From Candidatus Nanohaloarchaea archaeon (GTDB lineage Archaea; Nanohalarchaeota; Nanosalinia; Nanosalinales; Nanosalinaceae), in contig JBDGRK010000003.1 of assembly GCA_042218075.1 (NCBI GenBank), forward strand, positions 50,754-114,753: a stretch of DNA of 64,000 bases, in the 5' to 3' direction. The notes under the pieces were generated by a model. That model made no database searches and had not been told where the DNA came from. It worked only from the letters and a program-made list of their open reading frames with translations. Every line of letters starts with the position of its first letter. Within the stretch, counting starts at the first letter, position 1. The position numbers and the translations under genes are program-made. Positions 3,093 to 60,914 of the stretch are shown here, piece after piece.

Positions 3093-3488
3093 ATGGCTAT
3101 TGAAAGAGTACTCTACATCTGTACCGGGAACAGTTTCAGGAGTCCTGCGGCCGAAGCCCTGACAAGGAAGTATTATCCTGATCTGGAGCTTGAATCGGCT
3201 GGTACTGAAGCTACCGATCACATCGCCAAGAACATGAAGAGACTGCTGACTGAAGAAGGTGCGATTCAGTACGTTAAACCTCAACCGGACCAGGTTTCTG
3301 AAAGAGCAGTTAATCAGGCGGACAGGATCGTCTGCATGATGCCTGAGCACAGGGAATTTCTAATGGAAAACTTCGATGTAGAGGAAGAGAAGATCCAAGT
3401 CTGGAACATAGAAGATCCGATCAGGCCGCATGTGAGTGTTAGTGAAGCTTTTGAACAGATTGAAAATGAGGTAAAGAATTTATTTTGA
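3093..3488 (+). CDS. Low-molecular-weight phosphatase / ArsC family protein
   Basis: CTGNSFRS P-loop, SAGT, W-x-I-x-DP motifs. Confidence 0.9.
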   Translation: MAIERVLYICTGNSFRSPAAEALTRKYYPDLELESAGTEATDHIAKNMKRLLTEEGAIQYVKPQPDQVSERAVNQADRIVCMMPEHREFLMENFDVEEEKIQVWNIEDPIRPHVSVSEAFEQIENEVKNLF

Positions 3489-3510: not shown

Positions 3511-4215
3511 TCACTGTCTTATGTCACCCGCCCATTTTTCTATAAGTTCTTCGTGCTCATTTTCATCGTCAATATTTTCCCTTATTTCTTCTGCTGTGAC
3601 TTCAGGTTCTCTCGTCTCTATTTTATCTTCTCCACGTATGATATCATCAAAATTGTAGACTATCCTATCTGCGTAAATCATTATTTCTCTCAACGACTGC
3701 ATTTTTGAAAAATCATCCTTGAAGCGGGAATTCACGAGTCTCAGGTCATCGTATATAGTATCGGTTCCCATCCTATATTCCCTATTTCTTACAGTTCCTC
3801 TATTATTGTTTTCTGCTATTTTCCTTAACCTTGTCTTTCTGGATTCTATTTCCGTTACCATTTCCTCTATCGTTCTCTCCTCCCAAAAATTCTCCTCTAC
3901 TTTTTCTACTTCAAAAGTTAGGGTTTCTTCAATCTCGTGTCTCAACTTATTCATTTTTGGCACATATTTCCTAATTACTTGAGATATTTCCCTACCTTCT
4001 TCATATTCTCGACCTGCATCTACCATCAAGTGGTCTATAGCTTTGGTATAATTGTTTAAATCCTCGAAAATTTCCGGGCTCGCATCAGCCACAATTTCAG
4101 TATAGGATTGCACCAATCCCTTGAAGTCTCTCAGATACCTTATCATTTCATCCCTGCTTCTTCTATCCGCATTCCTTTCATTCGGTCTTCTTCTGTCATC
4201 CCGGTCATCGAGCAT
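3511..4215 (-). CDS. Hypothetical helical orphan protein
   Basis: 234-aa acidic ORF, AT-richer than core genes. Confidence 0.65.
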   Translation of the reverse strand: MLDDRDDRRRPNERNADRRSRDEMIRYLRDFKGLVQSYTEIVADASPEIFEDLNNYTKAIDHLMVDAGREYEEGREISQVIRKYVPKMNKLRHEIEETLTFEVEKVEENFWEERTIEEMVTEIESRKTRLRKIAENNNRGTVRNREYRMGTDTIYDDLRLVNSRFKDDFSKMQSLREIMIYADRIVYNFDDIIRGEDKIETREPEVTAEEIRENIDDENEHEELIEKWAGDIRQ

Positions 4216-6620: not shown

Positions 6621-7034
6621 TCAGTTTTCAGTAAAATCTCCTATTATTTCTGCAGAAATTTCTAATTTGGTTTCGACTTGATCGTATTTATCTTCCAATT
6701 TCTTATCCAATTTTCTGGCCAATTCTTTTGCTTCCATGTAATTACCTTCCCTTAGATATCTTTTGAGATTTCCCGCTTCTTCAACATCTGTACGCTCAAC
6801 AAGATCCTCGAGAGGCGACTCTAATAGTTGTTCAGCTACTTTGCTTGATACTTCTTCAGAACTTAATATTCTTGCTATCTGGCCGTCTGCATAGGTGGCT
6901 GGATATTCAGGATCAAAACCCGCATATAGTTCCACTATTTCTTCATGCGGGCCTATAAGTTCTTTGGAAGGTGTCCTCAACTTTCCATCACCCTTGAACT
7001 CCTTCTTGAATGTCATATTCGTTTTCATCATCAA
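6621..7034 (-). CDS. Orphan protein between atpA and atpB (real start possibly TTG at 6980)
   Basis: Acidic helical ORF, AT-richer; GGGTGATGG SD-like sequence precedes TTG. Confidence 0.6.
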
Positions 7035-48718: not shown

Positions 48719-51700
48719 ATGACTAATGTTCAACAGAAGACCAGTTTTAAACTACCCGTCAAGCGGGTGACAGGCGAAACCGTGGAAGAAAGACTTACCG
48801 AAAACGCTCACGACAGGATTCTTCCTGCCCGGTATCTACTGAAGGACGAGGAAGGAAATACTGTAGAGACTCCCAAGGAGATGTTCGAGCGCGTCGCGAA
48901 GAACGTAGCGCAGCCAGACAAAGAGTACGATGATATTGATTACGAGGATTCGTGGCAGGAGTTCTACGGGATGATGTCGAACCTGGAGTTCATGCCGAAC
49001 TCCCCGACACTTATGAACGCGGGGGCAGAACTCCAGCAACTGAGTGCGTGCTTCGTGGTTCATCCTGAGGACGACATGGACTCCATATTCAACAAGGTCC
49101 ACGACGCGGCGAAGATATTCCAGTCAGGAGGAGGCATGGGCTATCCCTTCCACCTGATGAGGCCCAAGGGCGATATTGTGAAGTCGACAGGAGGAATCGC
49201 GTCAGGACCCCTGAGCTTTCAACAGGTTTTCGACACCATGTGCGGGACTATCAAGCAGGGAGGAAAGAGAAGAGGAGCCCAGATGGGAATCATGCGTGTA
49301 GATCACCCGGACATCCTGAGGTTTATAGTTTCAAAGAGAAAGGAGGGCAACCTCTCCAACTTCAACATTTCCGTGGGACTGACGGAAGACTTCATGGAGG
49401 CGGTCAAGAACGACGAGGAATTCGAACTGATCAATCCTCGCACCGAAGAATCATTTGAAGTTTCAAGGAAGACGGCACAGTTCTACAACTCTGACGAGGA
49501 GTGGTATCCCGAGGCAGCAGGATCTGATCAGGGAAAGGATGACAACTTCTGGAGGGACTTTTCCGCAACGTTCTCCGACGAGGTCAACGAGTACGATATA
49601 GATCTTGAAGTAGGGGAGAAGATGACCTTACCCGCAAGGTTCATCTGGGAGTGTCTAGTGGATGGAGCCTGGAGAAACGGTGAGCCAGGACTCTTCATGT
49701 ACGACGAGACCAACGATCAACACTCCATAGACGTGGAGGAGCACCCGGAGCACAGAATCGAAGCAACAAATCCCTGTGTTACAGGAGACTCACTGATATC
49801 AACTGAGCAGGGTATATTCACGGCAGAGGAGCTTTACGAGCAGAGGATAGCCACTGATATAGTAGTGGACTCAAGGCTAAGTGATGAGAAGATCAAGGAA
49901 GCCAGCAGCGTGTACAAGACCGGTACCAAGGATGTCTACAGGCTCGAGACTGAAGAAGGTTTCGAGCTTAGACTCACCGAGGATCACAGGGTCATGACCG
50001 AGAAAGGATGGAAGGAAGCCCGTGAACTGGAAGAAGATGACGAAGTACATATTTTGGATCGTGAAGGTTCATTCGGTAGAGGAGGAACCCTTGAGGAAGG
50101 AAGAGTACTCGGCTGGCTTGTAGGCGATGGACAGATGAAGGAATCGGAGGAGAGAGCAGTGCTTCATTTCTACGACGAAGACTCTGAGATAACCTCAGAG
50201 TTTGCCAGTGATGTCAACAAAATTGTCAGGTCGCCGGAAGGAAATGCCGATTACGAGATCGGCGTCCAGGAGATCAGCAGGAGAGAGGGTCATAGGCAGA
50301 AATTGGAGGCAAAAGAGCAGAGAGTCAGATCCAAGAGACTCTGCGAACTGGCTGAAGAATACGGTCTTGCCGAGGAGAAGCTACAGGTGCCTGAAAAGGT
50401 GTTCCGGTCAGGTGAGCAGCTCGCAAGAGGATTCCTCCAGGGCCTTTTCACAGCTGACGGCTCCGTCCAGGGAACTACTGAGAAAGGAGTGCAGGTCAGG
50501 CTATCCAGTTCTGATGAAGAACTCCTGAAGGAAACACAGCAGCTACTCCTTAACTTTGGAATCTACAGCAAGATATACACTGAAAGGAGGGAAGAAGGAA
50601 GCAAAGAGATGCCCGATGGAAAAGGAGGAATCAGGGAGTACGACATCAAGGCACAGCACGATCTCGCGATTTCCAAAGAAAACCTGGAAAAGTTCAGGCA
50701 GAAGATCGGTTTCCTCAGAGAGGACAAGAACCAGGAACTAGAGCAAAAACTTTCGAACTACACCAGGGGGCCTTACCAGGAGAAGAGGACCGCGACTGTC
50801 GAGTATGTGGAAAAGGACGGTCACGAGGATGTCTACGACCTCACCGAACCTGAAACCCACTCATTTGTGGCTAACGGCATCGTGGTTCACAACTGCGGTG
50901 AGCAGCCATTGGAGAACTACGAGGCGTGCAACCTGGGACACATCAACCTCTCCCTGCTTGTAGAGGACCAGGGTGACGGCATGGGCCTCGACTGGAGGCA
51001 GTGGACCTCTGAAAATGCTGGAGAGTACGACTTCTCCTCACAGGAAGGACTTGAAGAAGCAATGAGCGACTACCTGCAGGAAGCCCTGAGGATGGACAAG
51101 TTCGAGGAGATAGCTAAGAAGGGAACGAGATTCCTGGACAACGTTGTAACGATGAGCGACTTCCCTCTCGAGGAGATCGAGGAAAAGGTCAGTTCGATGA
51201 GGAAGATCGGTCTCGGGCTGATGGGATTCGCACAGATGCTGATCCAGCTGGGCATCGAGTACGGAAGCGATGAGTCGATTGTAGCTGCCAAAGAAATCCA
51301 GAGGATGATAACACACTTCTCCGTCGAGGAATCTCATCGACTCGCGAAGGTTAGGGGAGAGTTCGACCACTACGAGAAGTCGAAGTGGGCGAATCCGACC
51401 GAGTACTCTGAATGGTTCCGGAAGTATTCAGGCGGGATGGATCCCGAGGAATATGAGGGAGGACTCAAGGTAAGAAACCACAACATGGTCACCATCGCTC
51501 CCACGGGAACGACTTCGATGATAGGCAACACATCCGGAGGATGCGAGCCGATCTACCAGGTCGCGTACTTCAAGAACGTCGCGAAGGACATCCAGGGAGA
51601 GGACATGCTTGTGGAGTTCGACGACTACTTCATCCGCGCTCTTGAGGCCAACGACATCGATATTGAGGAAGTCAAGCAAGAGGTAGAGAACCTGATGAGA

Positions 51701-52783
51701 AACAACGAGTGGCAGGGAGTCCAGTCCCTTGATGACGAGGTTCTTCCACCAGCAATAAAGGAAATCTTCAAGACCTCTGATCAAGTTACTCCAGAGGAGC
51801 ACGTCCGGATCCAGGCTGCGTTCCAGCAGCACAACCACTCGGGTATCTCCAAGACATGCAACTTCCCTAATGAGGCAACGAGAGAGGATGTTAGAGAAGC
51901 GTACATGCTTGCCTACGACCTGGGAATCAAGGGCATGACAGTCTACCGCGATGGAACAAGAGATGTTCAGGTCATGCAGCAGAACCAGGAGAACACCGTC
52001 ACCGACATGGACACAGTGGATGCGATCGCCGAACTCGTGGAAGAGCAGGGAGGAGTTCAGGAATTCCTGAGCTCGGAAGAGTTTGTTGAAGCGACAGGAA
52101 TCGAGGAAGAAGCAGGCCTCCAGATTATCGAGAAGGAATCCCAGGCTGATGGCGCCGAAGCAGATCTTAATGAAGACGTCACGCAGGAGAACGTGGAGGC
52201 AGAACCCGCCCAGGCAGAGCCTTCGGGAACTGTCAAACACACCAAGATGGGCAACGGAGCCCGGGAAAGACCAAAGATGATCTCCGGCACCACTCAGGAG
52301 ATAGAGACCGCCTACGGAGACCTGTTCGTGACAGTGAACGAGGATGATGAAGGCGTCTTTGAAGTTTTCGCCAATCTTGGCAAGTCGGGAGGTTACACCG
52401 AGAGCTTCACGCAGGCACTTGGAAGATCGATCAGCCTCGCACTGAGAACCGGTGCATCAGCTGAAGACGTGGTAAACCAGCTGGACGACATCCGGTCACC
52501 GCAGATAGCATGGGACCAGGGAACGCAGATCCACTCCGTGCCTGACGCGATAGCCGAGGCGATGAAGCGTCACCTGAGAGGGGGAAGCACTCCACAGCAG
52601 ACAGTGGACAACTTCTCTGAATCGCCGGGAAAGACCCAGGCAAAGACAGAGCAGGAGCAGAAAGCCGACTCGGCCAAGATCATTGCCAACGGCGGAAACC
52701 CTGAATGCCCCGAGTGCGGAGGCATGCTAATCCTGGAAGAAGGATGCAACAAGTGCCCCGACTGCGGCTTCTCCAAGTGCTGA
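48719..52783 (+). CDS. nrdJ: Class II (AdoCbl) ribonucleotide reductase with intein, TSCPD domain and zinc ribbon
   Basis: [20 protein letters not shown]|CGEQPL, TIAPTGT, SKTCN. Confidence 0.96.
49775..50893 (+). mobile_element. 373-aa intein with LAGLIDADG homing endonuclease
   Basis: Starts CVTGD, ends VVHN|C; LGWLVGDG and [10 protein letters not shown] motifs. Confidence 0.95.
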
Positions 52784-52828
52784 ACCTTCTGAAAGGTTCA
52801 CCATCATAAGCCATGCAAGGCATGGCTT
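52781..52828. repeat. Double hairpin after nrdJ
   Basis: TGAACCTT-CTGA-AAGGTTCA and AAGCCATGC-AAG-GCATGGCTT. Confidence 0.6.
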
Positions 52829-52877
52829 CCAAAATTTTCTCTCTTCTTATTTCTAACTACTATCGAAGAACCTAAAT

Positions 52878-52912
52878 TCCGGTTCAAATCCGGGTCCTGC
52901 CAATTGCATATA
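52878..52912 (+). repeat. tRNA 3'-end-like repeat R1
   Basis: TCCGGTTCAAATCCGGGTCCTGCCA-ATTGCATATA; no tRNA 5' half upstream. Confidence 0.8.
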
Positions 52913-52987
52913 CCTTGATTTTATAGGGTTCCCGAAACTGCCAAGAGATTCCAAAGATATCTAAGTATTTTATATAATAACTATTCT

Positions 52988-53509
52988 ATGCCTGAGAATG
53001 AAATTGAAGCAAAGGTTCTGGACATAGATAGAGAGGAAATTTCTGAAAAAATTGAGGATATAGGTGCAAAAAAGAAATTTGATGCTCAAATGAAGTCCAA
53101 GTTCTTCGACTTTCCAGATGGCTCTATAGAGAATAACGGCATATTAAGATTGAGAGATACGGGTGAAAGAACTTTCATTACTCGCAAGAAAGAGGTGAAA
53201 TTTGACGAAGCGAAGGAAATGGAGGAAATAGAATTTGATGTAAGTTCGAAAGAAGAAGCTGTAAAATTTCTTGAGTCTATTGGACTTGAAATAGTAGCAG
53301 AGAGTCAAAAAAGGAGAACAAAATGGGTTAAAGGAGAAGTTGAATTTGTTATCGACAAACTGCCTGAAATACCGCCATTACTTGAAATAGAGGCCCCAAA
53401 CCGAGAGAAGATGAAAAAGAATTTTGAAAAGCTTGACTTCGAAATGGAAGATACTGTAAACTGGGGAGCAAAGAAAACATTGGACTACTATGGAAAGCTT
53501 GAAGATTAA
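52988..53509 (+). CDS. CYTH-domain (class IV adenylate cyclase-like) protein
   Basis: EIEAK, LRLR, EEIEF, LEIE. Confidence 0.88.
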   Translation: MPENEIEAKVLDIDREEISEKIEDIGAKKKFDAQMKSKFFDFPDGSIENNGILRLRDTGERTFITRKKEVKFDEAKEMEEIEFDVSSKEEAVKFLESIGLEIVAESQKRRTKWVKGEVEFVIDKLPEIPPLLEIEAPNREKMKKNFEKLDFEMEDTVNWGAKKTLDYYGKLED

Positions 53510-53525
53510 TCAGTCTTTCAGTTCT

Positions 53526-53555
53526 TCCGGGTCCTGCCAATTGCATATCTCCACA
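53526..53555 (+). repeat. tRNA 3'-end-like repeat R2
   Basis: TCCGGGTCCTGCCAATTGCATATCTCCACA. Confidence 0.8.
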
Positions 53556-53596
53556 TTTGAAAGGGATACGGGAACTGCTAATTATTGCATCAAAAT

Positions 53597-54076
53597 TCAA
53601 AGCAAACTCGCTAGTTCGGATTGGAAATCTTCATAGGCTTCTTCCAAGTCTTCTCCAGTTCCTTTGTGTTCTGCTTGGCGCCCTATCTGTAGAATATATT
53701 CTCCCTCATTATACTCGGCTAATATGCCTCCAGTAATACGGTCAAAGTATATATCGGTAAGTCCGTCTGCACTATAAACCTTATCTGCAGGTTTTTCTAT
53801 TCCTAAATAATCCGCTCCTGCTCTACCTATTGCTGTGGGGATGCTTGGAGGACCTTCTATTTCATCAGACATCATTCCATGTCTCTTCATCTCTTCATTC
53901 TCTTGCATTGAGTTGCCTTCCGCAACCTTCTCTCCTACCTCAGGATTCTCTCTTCCTATAATATCGCCCTTGTAAAGAGCTATGACAACACCTGGAGGAT
54001 TATTTCTACCTGAAACAAGTGTTAAATCATCCTCCTTCAACGCCTTTTCCACACCTTTCCAACCTTGAGTATTCAT
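53597..54076 (-). CDS. Hypothetical orphan
   Basis: 159-aa ORF between R2 and R3. Confidence 0.65.
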   Translation of the reverse strand: MNTQGWKGVEKALKEDDLTLVSGRNNPPGVVIALYKGDIIGRENPEVGEKVAEGNSMQENEEMKRHGMMSDEIEGPPSIPTAIGRAGADYLGIEKPADKVYSADGLTDIYFDRITGGILAEYNEGEYILQIGRQAEHKGTGEDLEEAYEDFQSELASLL

Positions 54077-54171
54077 AAAAATTCATTCAAAAATTAATTT
54101 TTTATGAGTTTACCATAGTAAAATTATTCCGAATCAATTCCGGAAACTTCCGATTGCATATGACCGAATAT

Positions 54172-54261
54172 CGGTTCAAATCCAGGTCTTCGAAAATCCC
54201 TAGGATTTTCTGTTGTCAAGAAAATCTTTGATTTTCGGACTGCCAATTGCATATCTCCACA
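54172..54261 (+). repeat. tRNA 3'-end-like repeat R3 split by a double-hairpin insertion (54190..54237)
   Basis: CGGTTCAAATCCAGGTC[..]CTGCCAATTGCATATCTCCACA. Confidence 0.75.
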
Positions 54262-54277
54262 ATTGTTAATTTCTCAT

Positions 54278-54781
54278 TTATCGATAAATATTCGGTCCAG
54301 TAAGACATATTGACTTATCATCCGGCGTGGAGGGTAGGAAACAAATATCAAACTGAGTTTTCTCAATTACGAATATATATCGAGTTTGAGGATAGTGTGA
54401 AACATCTCTCGAAGTCCTAAGTATTGTTTCCTCAAAAACCATGTCTTCATTTCCTTCGTACTCCTCCAAAGCTATGAATTCATATTCATTATTATCCTCC
54501 GAATTTAGATCCCTCAGCATGGAATCTATAACTTCTTCCTCAGAATCAAGTTCAACTTCTCCTTTTTTGGTTTCTATAGCCGGATGATCCGGAGTTGCCT
54601 TCCTTTTAACAACCAAGTCTATATCAGAAGGGTTTTCACCTGAAACACTACTTCCTGTAATAAAAATAGGTCCTTGGCCGTATTTTTCGGTATAATTTCT
54701 CTCCAGGTAATTAGTTACATCTTGAAGTAAATCAAATTCGTCTTTTGACAAGGAGAAGTCGTCCTGACAAAAGTCTCTCAT
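54278..54781 (-). CDS. Minimal nucleotidyltransferase-fold protein
   Basis: FITGSSV...SDIDLVV, C-terminal FDICF. Confidence 0.65.
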   Translation of the reverse strand: MRDFCQDDFSLSKDEFDLLQDVTNYLERNYTEKYGQGPIFITGSSVSGENPSDIDLVVKRKATPDHPAIETKKGEVELDSEEEVIDSMLRDLNSEDNNEYEFIALEEYEGNEDMVFEETILRTSRDVSHYPQTRYIFVIEKTQFDICFLPSTPDDKSICLTGPNIYR

Positions 54782-54873
54782 AAATCTTCATACAAACAAA
54801 AAATTGTTTATACATTGTTACTTTACAATAGCTTCTAAGATTGAGTAATCCTCTGATTGAAATACAAAAATTT

Positions 54874-54915
54874 CCCAATTACATATCTATTGATTCCGGT
54901 CCAAATCCAGATCCT
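54874..54915 (+). repeat. Degenerate tRNA 3'-end-like repeat R4
   Basis: CCCAATTACATATCT followed by TTCCGGTCCAAATCCAGATCCT. Confidence 0.55.
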
Positions 54916-54936
54916 TAGATGATTCTTGGAAATTTT

Positions 54937-55257
54937 CTAAATTTCTATATCAGCTACAACCATCAGGTGATCGGAAAGGTTGGACTGGACGAGTTCGGTT
55001 GAGTTGCATTCGATCTCTTCCTGAAGTTTTTTAGCCACCTCATCAAGCGGCTCACCGGAAGAAGATCCAATGTCAAGAACTGTAAACTCTCCACTTTTGT
55101 TTTCCAGCAAATCCCTGAGACCTGTGTAGATCAGGTGATCAACGCTTTCTGGATTCACATACTGATCTCTAGAAGTGGTCATATGAGGATAGATTCCATT
55201 CTCCATTGATTTCCTGAATTCCTCACGATCCATTACTAGATAGTTCTCTGTTGCCAC
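54937..55257 (-). pseudogene. Truncated SAM-methyltransferase-like fragment
   Basis: TVLDIGSSSGE motif I; ORF ends shortly afterwards. Confidence 0.5.
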
Positions 55258-55279
55258 AGATACCTGTTAAACTAAAGAA

Positions 55280-56215
55280 TTAAATTTTCGAAAAAACATC
55301 CATTATCTCTTCACCGTATAACTCTTTCTCTCGCTCATCCATTCCTTTTAGTTCTATTATACCAGCCACCAGTCTCACTAATGTATCGAAGCGGTATAGA
55401 GATTCGTTTTTCTCAAAAGAAGCATCCAGTTCCCTGACCTCGCTGTATCCATTGTAAAGTGCCTCTCTGATGTCCCAGTTCGCGCCGATATCATGCATCC
55501 AGAAACCGTTTGCCGCTTTTACCAGATCTCTCTGGGCGTGACCTGAGTAGACATAATCCCAGTCCAGCACCGCCGTCAGTTCTCCATTTTTGAAGAGAAG
55601 ATTGTCAGGAGTGTAATCGTTGTGCAGCAGAACCGGTGTAAATTCTCTTGGTAAATCATCTCCTCTCTTCTCCACGAACTTTTCAATTGCATCAACAACC
55701 GAATCCATTCTTTCCCGTCGGTAGATTTCCTTCTTCTCCCTCAGCTTCTTCAGAATCCTCTCGCTCAAATCTTCGGAATCCGGAAAACCGTATTCCTTGA
55801 TTCCTTCGTTTTCAAATCCTATCCAGCCGGACGTCTCAAAACTTTTTGAGTTGTGAATTTTAGCAAGATACTTTCCCGCAGTTCTAACGTTTTCCGGTGA
55901 AAGATCGTTCTTCAGGCTTTCACCTTTTATTTCTCTAACTATAATGTAGCTGAAGTCTCCATAATCCTTTATTTCTTCAGTAAATACCTCAGGAACTGGA
56001 ATATCTGAATTCTGGAAATACCTGTAGCAGTTGAGGCAGTGAGAGAGGTCGCTGTTTTCCTCTTCCTCACCGAGAGGCGAAAGCTGGATAATGTAAGAAC
56101 TATCAGCGATGTCAATCCTGAAACTTTTGTGGATCAGACCAGTGCTTATCTCTTCTATACTCTCAGCATGTTCTACTAAGTCTTCATCTAAAATTTCTTT
56201 TATCCTATCTTTCAT
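55280..56215 (-). CDS. APH-family phosphotransferase (paralog of 14708)
   Basis: LLHNDYTPDNLL, VLDWD. Confidence 0.88.
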   Translation of the reverse strand: MKDRIKEILDEDLVEHAESIEEISTGLIHKSFRIDIADSSYIIQLSPLGEEEENSDLSHCLNCYRYFQNSDIPVPEVFTEEIKDYGDFSYIIVREIKGESLKNDLSPENVRTAGKYLAKIHNSKSFETSGWIGFENEGIKEYGFPDSEDLSERILKKLREKKEIYRRERMDSVVDAIEKFVEKRGDDLPREFTPVLLHNDYTPDNLLFKNGELTAVLDWDYVYSGHAQRDLVKAANGFWMHDIGANWDIREALYNGYSEVRELDASFEKNESLYRFDTLVRLVAGIIELKGMDEREKELYGEEIMDVFSKI

Positions 56216-56245
56216 CTGTATAATTTACCTAGAGAATCAATAATT

Positions 56246-56772
56246 TCAAACCCATCTTTCCAGGTCTATAAGTGCCATTGTCATTGCATCATTTATCACC
56301 GTATCTCCACCTTCATCGGTTAGATCTGTTATTTCAGGCAAAACATCTGCGATTACCTCTGCGGAATCAGCTTCATACCTGAAATCTTCCTCATTGCTGA
56401 AAACGCTCACCGTGTAGGATTTATCCGGGAATCTAGGGCTTGAATAATTCCTCCACAGAGCTCCGTAGCTGTCTCCAATATACTTGAGAACATTCAACTC
56501 TGATTCATCGACTTCAGCATTCAGCGGAAGATAATTCTCTCCATCTGGAGAGTAATAGATTGATCCTCTCTCCGGGTAGTGCAGATTGAAAAGTTCTATT
56601 ACTTCCAATCCTGCGGTATCCGTACCGGTGAAAATATTGAAACCTCCGGGTTCAGTGTCTTCTCCCCATTATCCGAGAAATCAGCCACTACGTAGCTTCC
56701 ACGATCGTCATAAAGCCTCTCACATTCATCCAGGTATGTGAATCGATTCTCAATTAATCTTTCAGTACTCAC
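56246..56772 (-). pseudogene. Frameshifted hypothetical gene
   Basis: GTG at 56772 gives MSTERLIENRF...; a frame change near the GGGG run at about 56665 joins the frame of ORF 56246..56608. Confidence 0.5.
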
Positions 56773-56871
56773 ATATACAGATTAGATATAAAATTTATCA
56801 TGCTAGAGCTGCTGGGGATCCTCAAGAATGCAGTTACAATTTTTTATTACTTTAGTCATATAACAATAATT

Positions 56872-57498
56872 ATGGACGGAAAGCCTTTCCCAGATCCTAT
56901 TGTAAAGCAAAATTCTGAACTTCAAAGAACGGAATATGATGAAGAGAAAGGAGTTTACAGGCTCGTTTATCAAGTATCAAAAGACTTAGATCTTGATGAG
57001 AGTGACTTTGATCGTACGGAATCTCTATTTATACCGGACTCTAATCAAATTTTTGTAGAGTTCTCTGATGGCAACCAGGCTGTAAAATATCACTTTCAGG
57101 AGTTCGGGGAAACAAAAACTTGGAATGATCCTGATACAAGAGAAATAGACCTTTTGATCGGATCCTTACATGATATAGCCAGAAGGAGGATGGCTAATGA
57201 TTCTGAAGAGTTCTTCAGTCATAGTGTTGGAGGGCTTGAAGACAGGGAAACAAATGAGAGATATGATCTTATCGAATTGGCAAATTGTACAAATCCAGAG
57301 AATGCAGAAATTATGGATGCAGTTCTTGAAGATGTAATGGAAAGATATGCTGAGAGACTTTCAAAAGAGGTAATAGCCAGAAATTATTCTCCTGAAGATT
57401 CAGGGATTGAAATTAGTGGAGAAAGCGGTAGAGAGTACCATGATTTTTCTTTAGATCCATTTGATGTACCAGATGTTGAAGATAAATGGATTGAATAA
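56872..57498 (+). CDS. Hypothetical orphan
   Basis: Acidic AT-rich ORF. Confidence 0.65.
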   Translation: MDGKPFPDPIVKQNSELQRTEYDEEKGVYRLVYQVSKDLDLDESDFDRTESLFIPDSNQIFVEFSDGNQAVKYHFQEFGETKTWNDPDTREIDLLIGSLHDIARRRMANDSEEFFSHSVGGLEDRETNERYDLIELANCTNPENAEIMDAVLEDVMERYAERLSKEVIARNYSPEDSGIEISGESGREYHDFSLDPFDVPDVEDKWIE

Positions 57499-57651
57499 AT
57501 CCCGATCTTAAAGTATGCTCGAACAGATCTCGCAAGATTGGGAATGCAGTTACAATAAAGCGGATTATTGCCGGATTTTTTTCTCTGATCAATGGATTTG
57601 GGATCATGAAAGACTGACAAAAACTTAAGATTTTATCGGTAAGTAACAATT

Positions 57652-58494
57652 ATGTCTGTCACGGTTGAGTCTTTCAGGGATGAGTTTGAGAAAGTCAAGC
57701 CGGTGCTGATGCAGCTTTTCGATGTTGAATCTGGGAATCTAATATATGAAGAACCTGATATTGAGACACTTGAAGAATTTGATGAGAATCGAGATCCTGA
57801 AGAAGAGAGTGTCGTATTCTATGATGGGAATTCAAACAAATTTGTAGTAAATGAACGGTACGATGAAACTGATTGCTTTATAGAAATAAATGAATCGAAT
57901 ATTAGCTGTGTAGCCGGAGAGGAATGTGTCCACTGGCTGAGACAATCACTTGGAGCAGCTATCAATAAATTCATGGATATTCCCAAACCGAGCAGGATGG
58001 AGATAGTGGAGGGTAAGAATTTATCTGAAGAAAGCATTGAATTGGCGAATAGAATCTATCCGGATAAAAAAGTCTTAACCTATAGTGAATACAAGAGAAC
58101 TATATCTCAGGCCAATACAGAGATTTATATGAAGGGATGTACCGTAGATGAATTCGTTGGCAGGCTTGGTGGAATTGTTGCAGCAGAAGCTTTCGCTGGT
58201 GAAGTTGTGCCGCCGGATTTAGAATCCTGGGATTTAGAAGAATCATCATTTATTAAGTCCCGATCCTGTTCCGAGGTTAGAAGGAAAATGTGGAATGAGA
58301 ACCTTGAAAGATTTCTGGATGAGTTAGACCACTTTTGGGACGAAATTGCCCATTTGGCAGGTTATCGGGCTGCGGATGAAAATTATGAAGACGCAATCGA
58401 TCACAACGGTATTCTCGCTAAATCACCTGTGGATCTCTGGAATGAATACAATCTGTCAAGATACGAGGAAGAAGCAATAAGGGAGTTAAGATAA
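57652..58494 (+). CDS. Orphan with zincin-like EExxH motif
   Basis: VAGEECVHWL followed by VDEFVG. Confidence 0.6.
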   Translation: MSVTVESFRDEFEKVKPVLMQLFDVESGNLIYEEPDIETLEEFDENRDPEEESVVFYDGNSNKFVVNERYDETDCFIEINESNISCVAGEECVHWLRQSLGAAINKFMDIPKPSRMEIVEGKNLSEESIELANRIYPDKKVLTYSEYKRTISQANTEIYMKGCTVDEFVGRLGGIVAAEAFAGEVVPPDLESWDLEESSFIKSRSCSEVRRKMWNENLERFLDELDHFWDEIAHLAGYRAADENYEDAIDHNGILAKSPVDLWNEYNLSRYEEEAIRELR

Positions 58495-58499
58495 ATCAA

Positions 58500-58823
58500 C
58501 TAATAGAGATTGCCTCCAACTGGAACCTCTTGATCAGGCGAAACAAGCACAGGATTTCCGTCCTCGTCAGGAACTCCAAGCGTCAGTACTTCTGACTTGA
58601 AACCCGCGATCCTCACCTCTCCAAGATCCGTTACACAAAGAACTTGTTGCCCCTCAACTTCCTCAACTGTATGATTGTATCCAAGCTGGGCTGCACTCTG
58701 CACCTCTCTATTTCCAAGATCCAGCCATAACTTGAACATCTCCGGTTTTCTTGCCTCCTCGAACTTTGCAGCTCTTTCCACTTTTCCAACCTTTATCTCG
58801 TTTTCAAGTGCCGAATCTGTCAT
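58500..58823 (-). CDS. csaA: CsaA/Trbp111 tRNA-binding protein
   Basis: IKVGKV, SAAQL, IAGFKSEVLTLG. Confidence 0.9.
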   Translation of the reverse strand: MTDSALENEIKVGKVERAAKFEEARKPEMFKLWLDLGNREVQSAAQLGYNHTVEEVEGQQVLCVTDLGEVRIAGFKSEVLTLGVPDEDGNPVLVSPDQEVPVGGNLY

Positions 58824-58874
58824 GAATACTTGAGTGAACCAAAATTTTTTCTATTTAAATCTTAAATATAACTT

Positions 58875-59273
58875 ATGAGCGAAGTAGAGACCGAAAAACG
58901 AATTGAGAACAGTAATTCAATTACTCTGGAGGATTGCGGCAGGTTTCTGGATTACTACAGATTCTATGATCGACTCTCGAGGATATTCGACACAGAGGAA
59001 AAGGAAAGATGCAGCCCGGACTCCCGGAACTACAATGTAAGTCCAGAATATGTTCAAGAATTGCGGAAAAATACCATTGGCAATGATCAAGAACTTGAGG
59101 AACTGATTCCGAAGAATGAGTGCTTTGACATAAACGATTTTAGGAGGGTAAGGAGTTACTGCTGGGAACAGATAGATATAGATTTTAAGAAAGAGAAAGA
59201 ACTCTACAGGAAAATCTCGGGAATTACAGGTTTCTATCGCCACCCCAAGAAAGATGGGGGAACTGGGATTTGA
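58875..59273 (+). CDS. Hypothetical orphan ending inside a tRNA-Trp 3' duplicate
   Basis: Last codons GGTGI* come from the repeat. Confidence 0.55.
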   Translation: MSEVETEKRIENSNSITLEDCGRFLDYYRFYDRLSRIFDTEEKERCSPDSRNYNVSPEYVQELRKNTIGNDQELEELIPKNECFDINDFRRVRSYCWEQIDIDFKKEKELYRKISGITGFYRHPKKDGGTGI

Positions 59274-59277
59274 ACCC
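59255..59277 (-). repeat. 23-bp exact duplicate of tRNA-Trp 3' end
   Basis: TGGGGGAACTGGGATTTGAACCC identical to 59333..59355. Confidence 0.9.
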
Positions 59278-59332
59278 GTCGAAAACTCCCGGAGTTTTCT
59301 CGAGGCTATCAAATCCCGAATAGAGAGAAATT

Positions 59333-59575
59333 TGGGGGAACTGGGATTTGAACCCAGATCGTCGGATATCTCCGATACAGCCAATAAAAGGCCCATATCC
59401 GTGTTCTAATCATCAGGTCGAAGATCAAAGATCTTCTCAAACTGTCACGCTAAGCGAGACAGTATCCTTCATAACTCCAGTACCAAGATCGGTTGCTCTG
59501 CAACCGTTCCGGATCGCGGACTGATCCCTGGCAGTCCCTGGAGTCCGATATGATACCAGGTTACACCATTCCCCC
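59333..59575 (-). tRNA. tRNA-Trp(CCA) with 170-nt intron (59368..59537)
   Basis: GGGGGAA acceptor, TCGGA-CTCCAG^A-TCCGA, BHB with CTCC/GGAG helix, GGTTCAAATCC. Confidence 0.93.
59368..59537 (-). ncRNA. Intron-encoded box C/D guide RNA
   Basis: Guide CTGGAGTT+ATGA targets C34 by the N+5 rule; CTGATGA box; second antisense CGGATAT to U39 region. Confidence 0.65.
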
Positions 59576-59624
59576 GAATATTCTGGATTGACCCGTACAT
59601 ACTTTTAACTCTTCAATCTTCAGG

Positions 59625-59918
59625 TCAGGCGAAGGAGAGAACGGTCGCAAGGTAGGATCCTGCCAGTATCGCGCTCATAAGAGTGACCATGGCTATTATC
59701 TCCATGAAGTTGCTCCAGTCATCCTCAAGCATCTCTCCAATACCGGAAGCTATCAGGGTTATGGCGGCCAGCATGGCAACACCCAGCAGTGTTCCGGCGT
59801 AGGATGGAAATTTTAGCAGGCTGACAGCAGAAAGAACCACGAAGCCATAGAAAAGCGGCTTGGACATCTCAATCATTCTGTCCTTGTCAACCTCGATTCT
59901 GGTTTCCATCTCTTTCAC
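59625..59918 (-). CDS. Small membrane protein
   Basis: Three TM segments. Confidence 0.7.
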   Translation of the reverse strand: MKEMETRIEVDKDRMIEMSKPLFYGFVVLSAVSLLKFPSYAGTLLGVAMLAAITLIASGIGEMLEDDWSNFMEIIAMVTLMSAILAGSYLATVLSFA

Positions 59919-59957
59919 AAAGTTAAATTAATTTCTTCCTGTATTAAAACTACCGGA

Positions 59958-60914
59958 ATGATAAAGAGCAGCAACGGGATAAGAATAGAGAGAAGTGGCG
60001 GAGTTGTTGCGGATGGACCAAGGAATCAGGAGGAACATCTCGTGGTTTCACACGCCCACGCAGATCACGCGGTGAAAAATGACGAAGTAATCGCCTGCTC
60101 GGAACTGACAGGTAGCATACTGGAGGAAAGGTTCGGTATAGAGGCGGAGCGAAACGTTCCGGAAAGTATTGAGCTTATCGATGCAGGTCATATACTCGGA
60201 TCGTCAGCTGTACTTGTGGAGGATGAAATTCTGTACACAGGCGATATTTCAACAAGTGAAAGGCTATACCTGGAGGGATTTAAGCCTGTAAGTGCGGAAA
60301 AACTGGTGATAGAATCGACCTACGGCATACCTAACTACACATTCCCAGAACAGGAGAAAGTGGTTGAAAGGATCAGGGAATGGATCAGGGAAAACGATAG
60401 TAGACCGCTTTTCCTGTTCGGTTACTCTCTCGGAAAGGCCCAGAAGATCCAGAAAATAGCGCAGGAGGCAACAGCCAGAGAGATAATCGCTCATGGAGCG
60501 GTCAGGAGAATGAACGAGGTCGTGGAGGCAAACACCGGACTCGAGTTCAGGGCAAAAAAGTATGGGGAGAACAAGGATCTGCTCGATAAGAATGCTATAT
60601 TTATCGGCCCATCCAGGGCCTCGAAGTCTGATTACATAGAGAAACTGGTGGAGAAACATGACGGTGTAAAGGCAGGTTTTTCCGGCTGGGCCGTGGATGA
60701 ATCATTCAGGTACCGGGGAGGTTACGACAAGACATTTCCGCTTTCGGATCACTGTGACTTCAAGGATCTAGTCGAGGTTGTGAAAAAGGTTGACCCGGAG
60801 AAGGTCTACACACACCATGGCTTCGACGAGGCATTCGCCTCCTTCCTGAAGAGAGAACTGGGATTCAACGCCCGCGCCCTGAAAAACAACCAGAGCTCTC
60901 TTGGAGATTTTTGA
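59958..60914 (+). CDS. MBL-fold beta-CASP nuclease
   Basis: SHAHADH, AGHILGS, YTGD, ESTYG, YSLGKAQ, LSDHCDF. Confidence 0.92.
   Translation: MIKSSNGIRIERSGGVVADGPRNQEEHLVVSHAHADHAVKNDEVIACSELTGSILEERFGIEAERNVPESIELIDAGHILGSSAVLVEDEILYTGDISTSERLYLEGFKPVSAEKLVIESTYGIPNYTFPEQEKVVERIREWIRENDSRPLFLFGYSLGKAQKIQKIAQEATAREIIAHGAVRRMNEVVEANTGLEFRAKKYGENKDLLDKNAIFIGPSRASKSDYIEKLVEKHDGVKAGFSGWAVDESFRYRGGYDKTFPLSDHCDFKDLVEVVKKVDPEKVYTHHGFDEAFASFLKRELGFNARALKNNQSSLGDF

Follow-up and report, generated by a model that had tools for sequence, protein, structure and literature searches.

How do single accessory genes come to stand in a row, each set off by a repeat of the 3' end of a transfer RNA, at a site where no such tRNA gene is present? 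This question is raised by a locus downstream of nrdJ, the gene for class II ribonucleotide reductase, in a 64,000-nucleotide (nt) stretch of DNA, hereafter the window, from Candidatus Nanohaloarchaea archaeon (assembly GCA_042218075.1, contig JBDGRK010000003.1, positions 50,754-114,753). The source genome is referred to as G000 and the window corresponds to G000:C23:50754-114753, with C numbers standing for contigs; other G numbers denote related genomes, L numbers loci fetched from related genomes or records, and X1-X4 metagenome runs. An earlier note, made from the letters of the window alone, had read the locus as an integron-like platform on which single-gene cassettes are captured serially at a tRNA-derived site by a recombinase in trans, an interpretation that our analysis supports in part, with most of the checks which it called for turning out favourably. 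Repeats made of the end of tRNA-Pro indeed divide positions 52879-54914 into three single-gene cassettes, and we consider it probable that these are tandem non-autonomous mini-integrative elements, which would be moved in trans by an integrase acting at tRNA-Pro.

The repeat consists of a tRNA-Pro-derived core, denoted O, and a trailer to its right, P'; a left arm, P, precedes O at some junctions only. The full O-P' unit spans about 68 nt. As had been recognised before, O holds the T arm, the 3' acceptor strand and the discriminator A: it equals the final 24 nt of tRNA-Pro, with a 5-bp T stem and the 7-nt T loop TTCAAAT. The trailer, formerly estimated at about 15 nt, is in fact about 45 nt long and is composed of ATTGCATAT, the TATA-like motif ATTTnATAG and then ...GAAACTGCCA. 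The left arm is made of a worn 3' part of O and the first 19 nt of P', and the arms are characterised by ACTKCCAATTGCATAT. A profile was built from 21 O-P' units of G000 and related genomes, with the first of the four window repeats (R1-R4) among the seeds and R2 not, and was scored over the whole window. The array comprises the following features:

52879..52946, + strand: R1, with O at 52879-52902 and P' at 52903-52946 (profile E 8.5e-23, seed copy)
52988..53509, + strand: gene of cassette 1, CYTH-domain protein of 173 amino acids (aa) (Pfam CYTH, E 2.3e-11)
53519..53583, + strand: R2, with a worn T arm, an intact TCCGGGTCCTGCCA (53526-53539) and P' at 53540-53581 (profile E 6.6e-16 at 53526-53581, not a seed)
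53597..54076, - strand: gene of cassette 2, protein of 159 aa of no known family (no Pfam match at E <= 5)
54126..54171, + strand: left arm P, the worn 3' part of O (54126-54152) followed by ATTGCATAT and 10 nt (54153-54171)
54172..54268, + strand: R3, with the T arm at 54172-54188, a 51-nt insert at 54189-54239, CTGCCA at 54240-54245 and a short P' at 54246-54265
54278..54781, - strand: gene of cassette 3, protein of 167 aa with a weak nucleotidyltransferase-like match (Pfam NTP_transf_2 E 0.087 and MTPAP-like palm E 0.033, both below the curated cut-off)
54871..54914, + strand: R4, probable degenerate P-O junction, attR-like, at the right end of the array (6 mismatches to a 38-nt P-O composite known elsewhere)

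Three strong copies and one worn copy of the repeat are thus present, all direct and all on the + strand, as are the repeat families D1 (five direct copies, at 52876, 53513, 54126, 54168 and 54893) and D2 (four, likewise direct). Several details of the earlier description had to be amended. R1 starts at 52879 and not at 52878; the weaker traces near 52930 and 53568 each represent the 3' end of the unit of about 68 nt, and that near 54140 is the left arm ahead of R3. The copy placed at 54172 exists, with a two-hairpin insert (51 nt, folding with z -3.8) between its T arm and CTGCCA, and its two parts were recovered separately in the profile search (54240-54268, E 5.7e-5; 54172-54188, E 0.012). 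The degenerate copy given as 54874-54915 is probably a fourth repeat, judging from its likeness to the composite, its pieces not being significant alone. There are three cassette genes and not four, since the fourth gene counted earlier, an open reading frame (ORF) of 106 aa at 54937-55257, lies to the right of R4 and outside the array; it was labelled as a methyltransferase fragment and has no Pfam match. The CYTH label was borne out, while a nucleotidyltransferase in cassette 3 is hinted at only.

The window units measure about 0.6-0.7 kb each, and the repeats tightly abut single ORFs. R1 is attL-like, but without a tRNA 5' part ahead of it, and P together with R3 makes up an attP-like P-O-P' junction that is 80-87% conserved in G050, G054, G058, G049, G056 and G047. 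The same P-O composite was found on C37 of G000 and in G002, G004, G046, G047, G050 and G056. The succession of junctions along the window, O-P', O-P', P-O-P' and P-O, is the one expected for tandem integrations. Two absences noted earlier also hold. Between nrdJ and R1 no tRNA gene was found by ARAGORN with and without introns, and Rfam (E <= 1) returned none in 52000-60000, nor any other credible family. A whole-genome search with PF00589 gave no match in 52879-54914 and no integrase fragments in or beside the array, the closest match to it being weak (E 0.001) and about 17 kb off.

An insert like that of R3 was also observed elsewhere. In several genera a two-hairpin module of about 50 nt (AAAATCC..GGATTTT, GAAAAYY..RRTTTTC) separates O from a duplicated CTGCCA (window 54189-54239; G000:C26:~3780-3830; L040, L054, L055 and L056), and the second hairpin is also present within the canonical introns that interrupt tRNA-Pro(UGG) and tRNA-Arg in G000. 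The module may be a small mobile or intron-derived element.

From which tRNA does the core derive? The 27 nt at 52876-52902 match the end of tRNA-Pro(CGG) (C40:11219-11292) without a single difference. ARAGORN with introns placed the tRNA-Pro genes of G000 on C37 (UGG), C19 (GGG) and C40 (CGG); a fourth call, on C10, is spurious in appearance. The parent tRNA foreseen in the earlier note therefore exists, with the 5' strand GGCGGGA/G, including a G-U pair, in place of the predicted GGCAGGA. Further copies, likewise foreseen, were located at four other loci of G000 (C23:1870-2987, C26:2961-3849, C34:5384-5449 and C37:2353-2970). On C37 the order is tRNA-Pro(UGG), O-P', an ORF of 144 aa, P-O, a leader and a gene for a tyrosine integrase; the 100-N scaffold gap in the latter (~3170-3330) is probably an unmerged overlap, because the same 55 nt stand on both sides.

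Such a parentage invites an explanation at the level of RNA or expression, namely that the units are promoters, terminators or tRNA-like processing signals, or the 3' halves of split tRNA-Pro. The TATA-like ATTTnATAG is conserved in P', and genes on the same strand start about 40-80 nt past P'. Against this, a processing minihelix would require a 5' acceptor strand, which is missing from O, 26 of 38 cassette ORFs are on the strand opposite to the repeat (12 are on the same one), O-P' folds no better than its shuffles (z +0.4 to +0.5), and all three tRNA-Pro 5' halves reside in complete genes; we regard the explanation as extremely improbable. Split 3' halves were rejected as a separate candidate: there is no orphan tRNA-Pro 5' half in G000, and the orphan O copies are not split-tRNA halves, since each of the three 5' halves belongs to a complete gene. 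A conserved RNA structure in P' was also rejected, as no consistent covariation was seen by eye in the 21 units and folding was no better than that of shuffles.

The arrays are not confined to G000: such units stand behind tRNA-Pro(UGG) in at least nine related genomes. Among the matches listed, the unit including P' was present in at least 13 of 24 genomes of the same family and in none of 16 from other families. We read 11 tRNA-Pro(UGG) loci (G000, G003, G004, G008, G014, G020, G023, G024, G046, G047 and G055), and in nine a second copy of O followed within 2.5 kb downstream of the tRNA gene; in G003 only O-P' stands directly behind tRNA-Pro(UGG), and in G024 an integrase element does so. 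Taken over all fetched loci, 59 sites delimit 28 intervals, with a median spacing of 820 nt and a range of 151-2494 in a sample that is biased, because the loci were fetched for their repeat match; exactly one ORF (>= 60 aa) was found in 19 of the 28. The cargo is varied and includes an aminoacyl-tRNA editing domain, HD, histidine phosphatase, methyltransferase, DUF429 and secreted acidic proteins. Equivalent arrays occur in the single-contig genomes G002, G020 and G023.

Broader scans were made with short probes. A 16-mer gave at least 119 matches on genome contigs, nearly all by chance, with the full unit in four only (L078, L095, L152 and L160), one of them a record titled Candidatus Nanohalobium sp. 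A scan of metagenome contigs for the P-O junction returned one match, on a contig of 7.8 kb and not on a small circle. A viral origin of the attachment (att) unit was considered and rejected: the five IMG/VR matches to the 16-mer are attributable to chance, since none has a tRNA-like left flank.

The single cassettes behind tRNA-Pro(UGG) in two closed genomes were inspected by eye. That of G020 (L037 8753-9626) has the appearance of a toxin-antitoxin-type nucleotidyltransferase/HEPN-like pair, and that of G023 (L042 6918-7829) of a small, ribbon-helix-helix-like pair, also of toxin-antitoxin type. The displaced tRNA copy in G020 extends back to the anticodon arm.

Do the cassettes move as units? 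Two cassettes of G000 recur in other genera, and in both cases the homology ends at the repeats, where breakpoints had been expected by the earlier note. The unit of cassette 2 (window 53516-54213) matches G046:C27:6804-7515 with 76% nt and 80% aa identity; the match is the third cassette behind tRNA-Pro(UGG), the alignment begins at O with similarity lost to its left, and the neighbours differ. The second case, G000:C23:1911-2984 against G047:C5 (L060:4734-5646), is 79-88% identical in nt from repeat to repeat. A third shared pair was found at 51% aa identity. As a scale for divergence, the C-terminal part of NrdJ is 64% identical in G046 and 72% in G047. When the proteins of the window were compared with the loci of the first seven relatives, no matches were obtained.

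A metagenome gives a similar picture for cassette 1. In run X4 a variant about 95% identical to the CYTH cassette forms a 631-nt contig of depth 114 that ends at both repeats, and nrdJ and cassette 2 are at depth 0-3, uncovered parts in X3 and X4 not being evidence of absence in general. These records bear on the possibility that the repeats are passive scars, that is, leftover attL and attR sites of a larger provirus or plasmid at a tRNA-Pro-like site, mostly deleted since, with genes that are immobile. R2 and R4 are worn, the array of G002 is degenerate with no integrase nearby, and tandem integration with decay is known from tycheposon islands, as described in a preprint (bioRxiv 10.1101/2020.12.28.424599). 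However, random decay should spread the sizes of the remnants, in contrast to the observed median of 820 nt and the single ORF in 19 of 28 intervals; the array contains no integrase fragments, the same units of one gene are found in other genera beside different genes, their homology reaching no further than the repeats, and the CYTH unit was found apart from its neighbours in X4. Immobile scars are in our view unlikely.

The flank of nrdJ was also examined. The conserved anchors and the rest of the low-GC (guanine plus cytosine) interval are as follows:

48719..52783, + strand: nrdJ, class II ribonucleotide reductase with a LAGLIDADG intein (Pfam Ribonuc_red_lgC, E 5.9e-124; Intein_splicing; LAGLIDADG_3)
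54937..58499: remaining low-GC variable interval (GC 0.35-0.42), with the 106-aa ORF, an APH-family kinase and three ORFs without Pfam family
58500..58823, - strand: csaA-like tRNA-binding-domain gene, conserved right anchor (Pfam tRNA_bind, E 4.5e-12), syntenic with nrdJ in G001

The nrdJ gene is the conserved left anchor, with R1 directly adjoining its 3' flank, and downstream of it GC drops from 0.52 to 0.35-0.42, a level lasting to about 58.5 kb. The kinase is encoded at 55280-56215 (Pfam APH, E 3.7e-26). No recognisable repeats and no significant match to the O-P' profile were detected in 54937-58499. G001 belongs to the same genus, and its nrdJ, csaA and the genes that follow are in synteny with those of G000; its 4.2-kb nrdJ-csaA interval has no ORF in common with G000 and is free of repeats, and the genes in 54937-58499 have no homologue there. 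The interval behind nrdJ differs between relatives, as the earlier note had anticipated.

The nrdJ flank followed by O was found in three of seven genomes (G000, G046 and G047), each with different cassettes behind, so that O at this place appears as a kept docking site with changing cargo; no O follows nrdJ in G001, G002, G008 and G014. Behind nrdJ, G046 has O-P', one ORF and O-P'. In G047:C31 the T arm stands inverted directly at the conserved nrdJ flank (L189 ~6895-6913), and the rest of O-P' is about 900 nt off on the other strand (L189 5957-6013), as is the cassette. A search for empty sites found the genes flanking the arrays of G004, G046 and G047 to be without a clear orthologue in G000. 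The G047 layout gives the impression of the insertion, or the flipping, of a cassette by way of the near-palindromic T stem.

Could the order of the array itself be chimeric, with unrelated pieces joined by the assembler through shared repeats? Four runs were examined as Logan contigs. In the probable source run the contigs break at R1 and R2, and the piece with the CYTH gene has a depth of 15.1, as compared with 10.2 and 11.6 for its neighbours. In X1, however, cassettes 2 and 3 and the right flank are on one contig of 8322 nt, and the join of nrdJ with O is on another of 716 nt; equivalent arrays exist in the single-contig genomes already mentioned, and nrdJ, O and a cassette follow each other also in G046 and G047. 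An artefact of this kind has a very remote chance of being the explanation. The contigs also contain joints such as 52903>53541, 52896>54232 and others; with sides of only 20-39 nt they may stem from other repeat copies and are no evidence for or against excision.

Which enzyme might act on these sites? Homologues of the C37 integrase were detected in 16 of 49 other genomes of the family, and eight integrase loci were read. Two abut tRNA-Pro (G000:C37 and G024:C39), one is directly followed by an O-P' array (G047:C26, with the order 405-aa integrase, O-P', two genes, O-P', two genes, O-P'), three abut other tRNAs (G044, G047:C30 and G008:C6) and two are cut off by contig ends. The N-terminal stretch of the G024:C39 integrase (query residues 6-45) is 70% identical to that of C37. 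These are ordinary tyrosine recombinases, neither IntI nor XerA, with a zinc ribbon in the one complete enzyme scanned (G047:C26). The integrase, too, seems to form a cassette of one gene, with a leader and int between O copies.

A dedicated integrase would be dispensable if the unit of about 68 nt served merely as a portable stretch of identity, by which general homologous recombination or gene conversion shuffles the genes. Such a role accords with the arrays in genomes where no matching integrase was found and with the conservation of P' at 75-93% across genera. But the core coincides exactly with the T arm plus the 3' end of a tRNA, a classic integrase target, and Islander lists attP sites of the T-stem region (PMC4383910); moreover, some partial copies take their start from the T stem's 3' half, as would suit a crossover at the T loop, and integrases abut O in G000:C37, G024:C39 and G047:C26. 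We hold this explanation to be quite improbable.

We thus return to non-autonomous elements mobilised by a tRNA-Pro integrase, for which the following course of events may be envisaged. Each single-gene cassette is bounded by O, with P' to the right and P to the left of O on the cassette side, and accordingly the attP on the circle of a free cassette would read P-O-P'. A tyrosine integrase targeting tRNA-Pro would recombine such circles with any copy of O, the crossover likely falling in or beside the 7-nt T loop, and each insertion would add one cassette and duplicate O. In this archaeal family tRNA-Pro(UGG) would be the usual docking site, and O behind nrdJ a secondary, tRNA-less one kept in several genera. 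The cassettes themselves being free of recombinases, the C37 integrase, located at the tRNA-Pro(UGG) array, stands as the candidate helper in G000. The anatomy, the parent tRNA, the arrays across the family, the cassettes common to several genera and ending at the repeats, and the integrases beside such arrays are direct observations; that recombination by an integrase and no other process moves the cassettes, its action in trans and the crossover position are inferred.

A number of points weigh against this reading. R4 is not significant by itself, its pieces scoring E 3.5 and 7.2 with the profile, and to this is added the bias of the spacing sample stated above. The order of nrdJ, the CYTH gene and the 159-aa ORF across R1 and R2 rests on the assembly of the metagenome-assembled genome, since the Logan contigs break there, and no recombination product was seen in the Logan contigs of the four runs. 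As regards the enzyme, the homologues are limited to the 16 of 49 genomes, and G002, a closed genome, has a worn array with its sole tyrosine recombinase about 500 kb away. G046 has arrays and only a sub-threshold PF00589 match. The closest relative of the C37 integrase (66% identity, in G044) lies beside a tRNA other than tRNA-Pro, called as Phe with an intron by ARAGORN and showing the anticodon CAT by eye. Finally, the C37 integrase is a candidate server of the window cassettes, and its own element has a different arm to the right of O, TTTTACCC...GGGTTCAATGG, in place of the ATTGCATAT... of the cassettes; if arm sites matter, it may for this reason not be the cognate enzyme.

The genomic background may be briefly described. 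G000 is represented by 1.10 Mb in 40 contigs with an estimated completeness of 92%, its proteins look very acidic by eye, and the runs containing window DNA are labelled as salt lake metagenome. The C-terminal end of nrdJ encodes a zinc-ribbon-like CxxC...CxxC tail, and its intein has a LAGLIDADG homing-endonuclease domain.

The tRNA genes of G000 deserve a separate remark. They have long introns, and ARAGORN called only 23 of them with introns allowed. In the window, tRNA-Trp(CCA) at 59255-59575 (- strand) has a 170-nt 'intron' by ARAGORN, and a 22-nt copy of its part from the T loop to the 3' end lies about 78 nt downstream, with the hairpin GAGAAAAC...GTTTTCGA between the end of the gene and this second copy. 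The same layout of end, hairpin and copy follows tRNA-Ala on C15 (64915/64991) and occurs at C10:87990/88068 and C20:12848/12926. A scan of G000 with TTCAAATCC revealed at least a dozen further tRNA-like ends, each a T arm and acceptor, outside called genes (for example C7:2129, C10:96534, C11:13892, C13:2840, C34:1835 and C39:235). Many tRNA genes of this genome probably have unusual introns or layouts.

How does the array relate to systems already described? The general mechanism is known. Tycheposons of Prochlorococcus (Hackl et al., bioRxiv 10.1101/2020.12.28.424599) integrate at a few tRNA genes including tRNA-Pro(UGG), stand side by side parted only by a partial tRNA copy, with newer elements displacing older ones outward, and leave partial tRNAs and remnants scattered through the islands of a streamlined genome. 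The window and C37 arrays share with them the tandem arrangement of elements. Unlike tycheposons, which were found as integrase-carrying units in a bacterium, each cassette here is archaeal and has one accessory ORF and no integrase; the units are about 0.5-1.7 kb long, mostly with one gene, have a conserved 45-nt arm past the tRNA end and occur also at a tRNA-less site. With the tDNA islands of Islander (PMC4383910) they have in common a displaced 3' tDNA fragment in direct orientation and a core in the T-stem region. An intact tDNA with the displaced 3' fragment is seen at G000:C37 and at nine of 11 tRNA-Pro(UGG) loci, and the window is without a tRNA-Pro gene. Islander accepts an island only if it contains an integrase and is 2 kb or longer, and the cassettes, having neither, would be filtered out.

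Archaeal integrons and integrase-less clusters of attC sites lacking integron integrases (CALINs; bioRxiv 10.1101/2022.02.06.479319) are arrays of short ORFs with diverse cassettes, many without a nearby integrase. The likeness lies in tandem short ORFs interspersed with recombination sites (here at a median of 820 nt, with one ORF in 19 of 28 intervals). The array is integron-like in this layout, as the earlier note had proposed; it is not an integron, for the strict features, IntI, the attC fold and a single orientation, are absent. With TIGR02249, for which the cut-off is 265, the G047:C26 integrase reached 40.7 bits over model positions 3-168 only, and that of C37 has no match to this model. 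As DNA, O-P' on either strand gave z +0.44 to +0.52 relative to shuffles and is not attC-like, only the optional 51-nt insert folding well. The ORFs are of mixed orientation (12 on the same strand, 26 on the opposite one), in contrast to integrons, which generally have one orientation, and the sites derive from the end of a tRNA.

Cis-mobilisable elements (CIMEs), known together with accretion at att sites from integrative and conjugative elements in Streptococcus, are larger, derive from decayed conjugative elements and are moved by conjugation. They resemble the cassettes in that DNA bordered by att sites, but devoid of an integrase, is stacked with an element that has one and could mobilise it: the cassettes have O-P' or P-O junctions on both sides and no recombinase of their own, and an integrase is present at the tRNA-Pro(UGG) array of C37. 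The difference is that no transfer machinery is in view in the array. Archaeal 'gene capture', which She et al. reportedly proposed in 2001, also keeps foreign genes between tRNA-derived direct repeats in the chromosome; in that model the integrase gene of the SSV (Sulfolobus spindle-shaped virus) type is said to be split on integration and to leave its halves at the borders, whereas no integrase pieces flank the cassettes of G000 in the whole-genome PF00589 search. What differs here is the one-gene grain, the integrase-free units, the conserved arms, the tRNA-less docking site and the host lineage. A full-text literature search found no description of such arrays in nanohaloarchaea or in archaea generally, supplements, possibly with relevant tables, lying outside its reach.

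Nanohaloarchaea are host-dependent organisms with genomes of about 1 Mb, and the gain and loss of their accessory genes is little described. If the arrays are active, they would represent a compact capture platform with one gene per unit of about 0.8 kb, integron-like layouts could arise from ordinary tRNA-targeting integrases, and a tRNA-derived core could persist as a docking site after loss of the tRNA gene. Standard island finders discard such units by design, as Islander demands an integrase and at least 2 kb (PMC4383910). Tentatively, and with the balance somewhat against it, one may envisage a gene-capture system spanning this family of Nanohaloarchaeota, parallel to integrons and independently built from a tRNA, in which a minimal one-gene integrase cassette, as the autonomous member, would serve a large and fast-turning pool of one-gene, integrase-less P-O-P' cassettes that dock one behind another at tRNA-Pro and at fixed O sites devoid of a tRNA, such as that behind nrdJ. 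If so, it would be the main route by which these tiny-genome symbionts swap accessory genes between genera.

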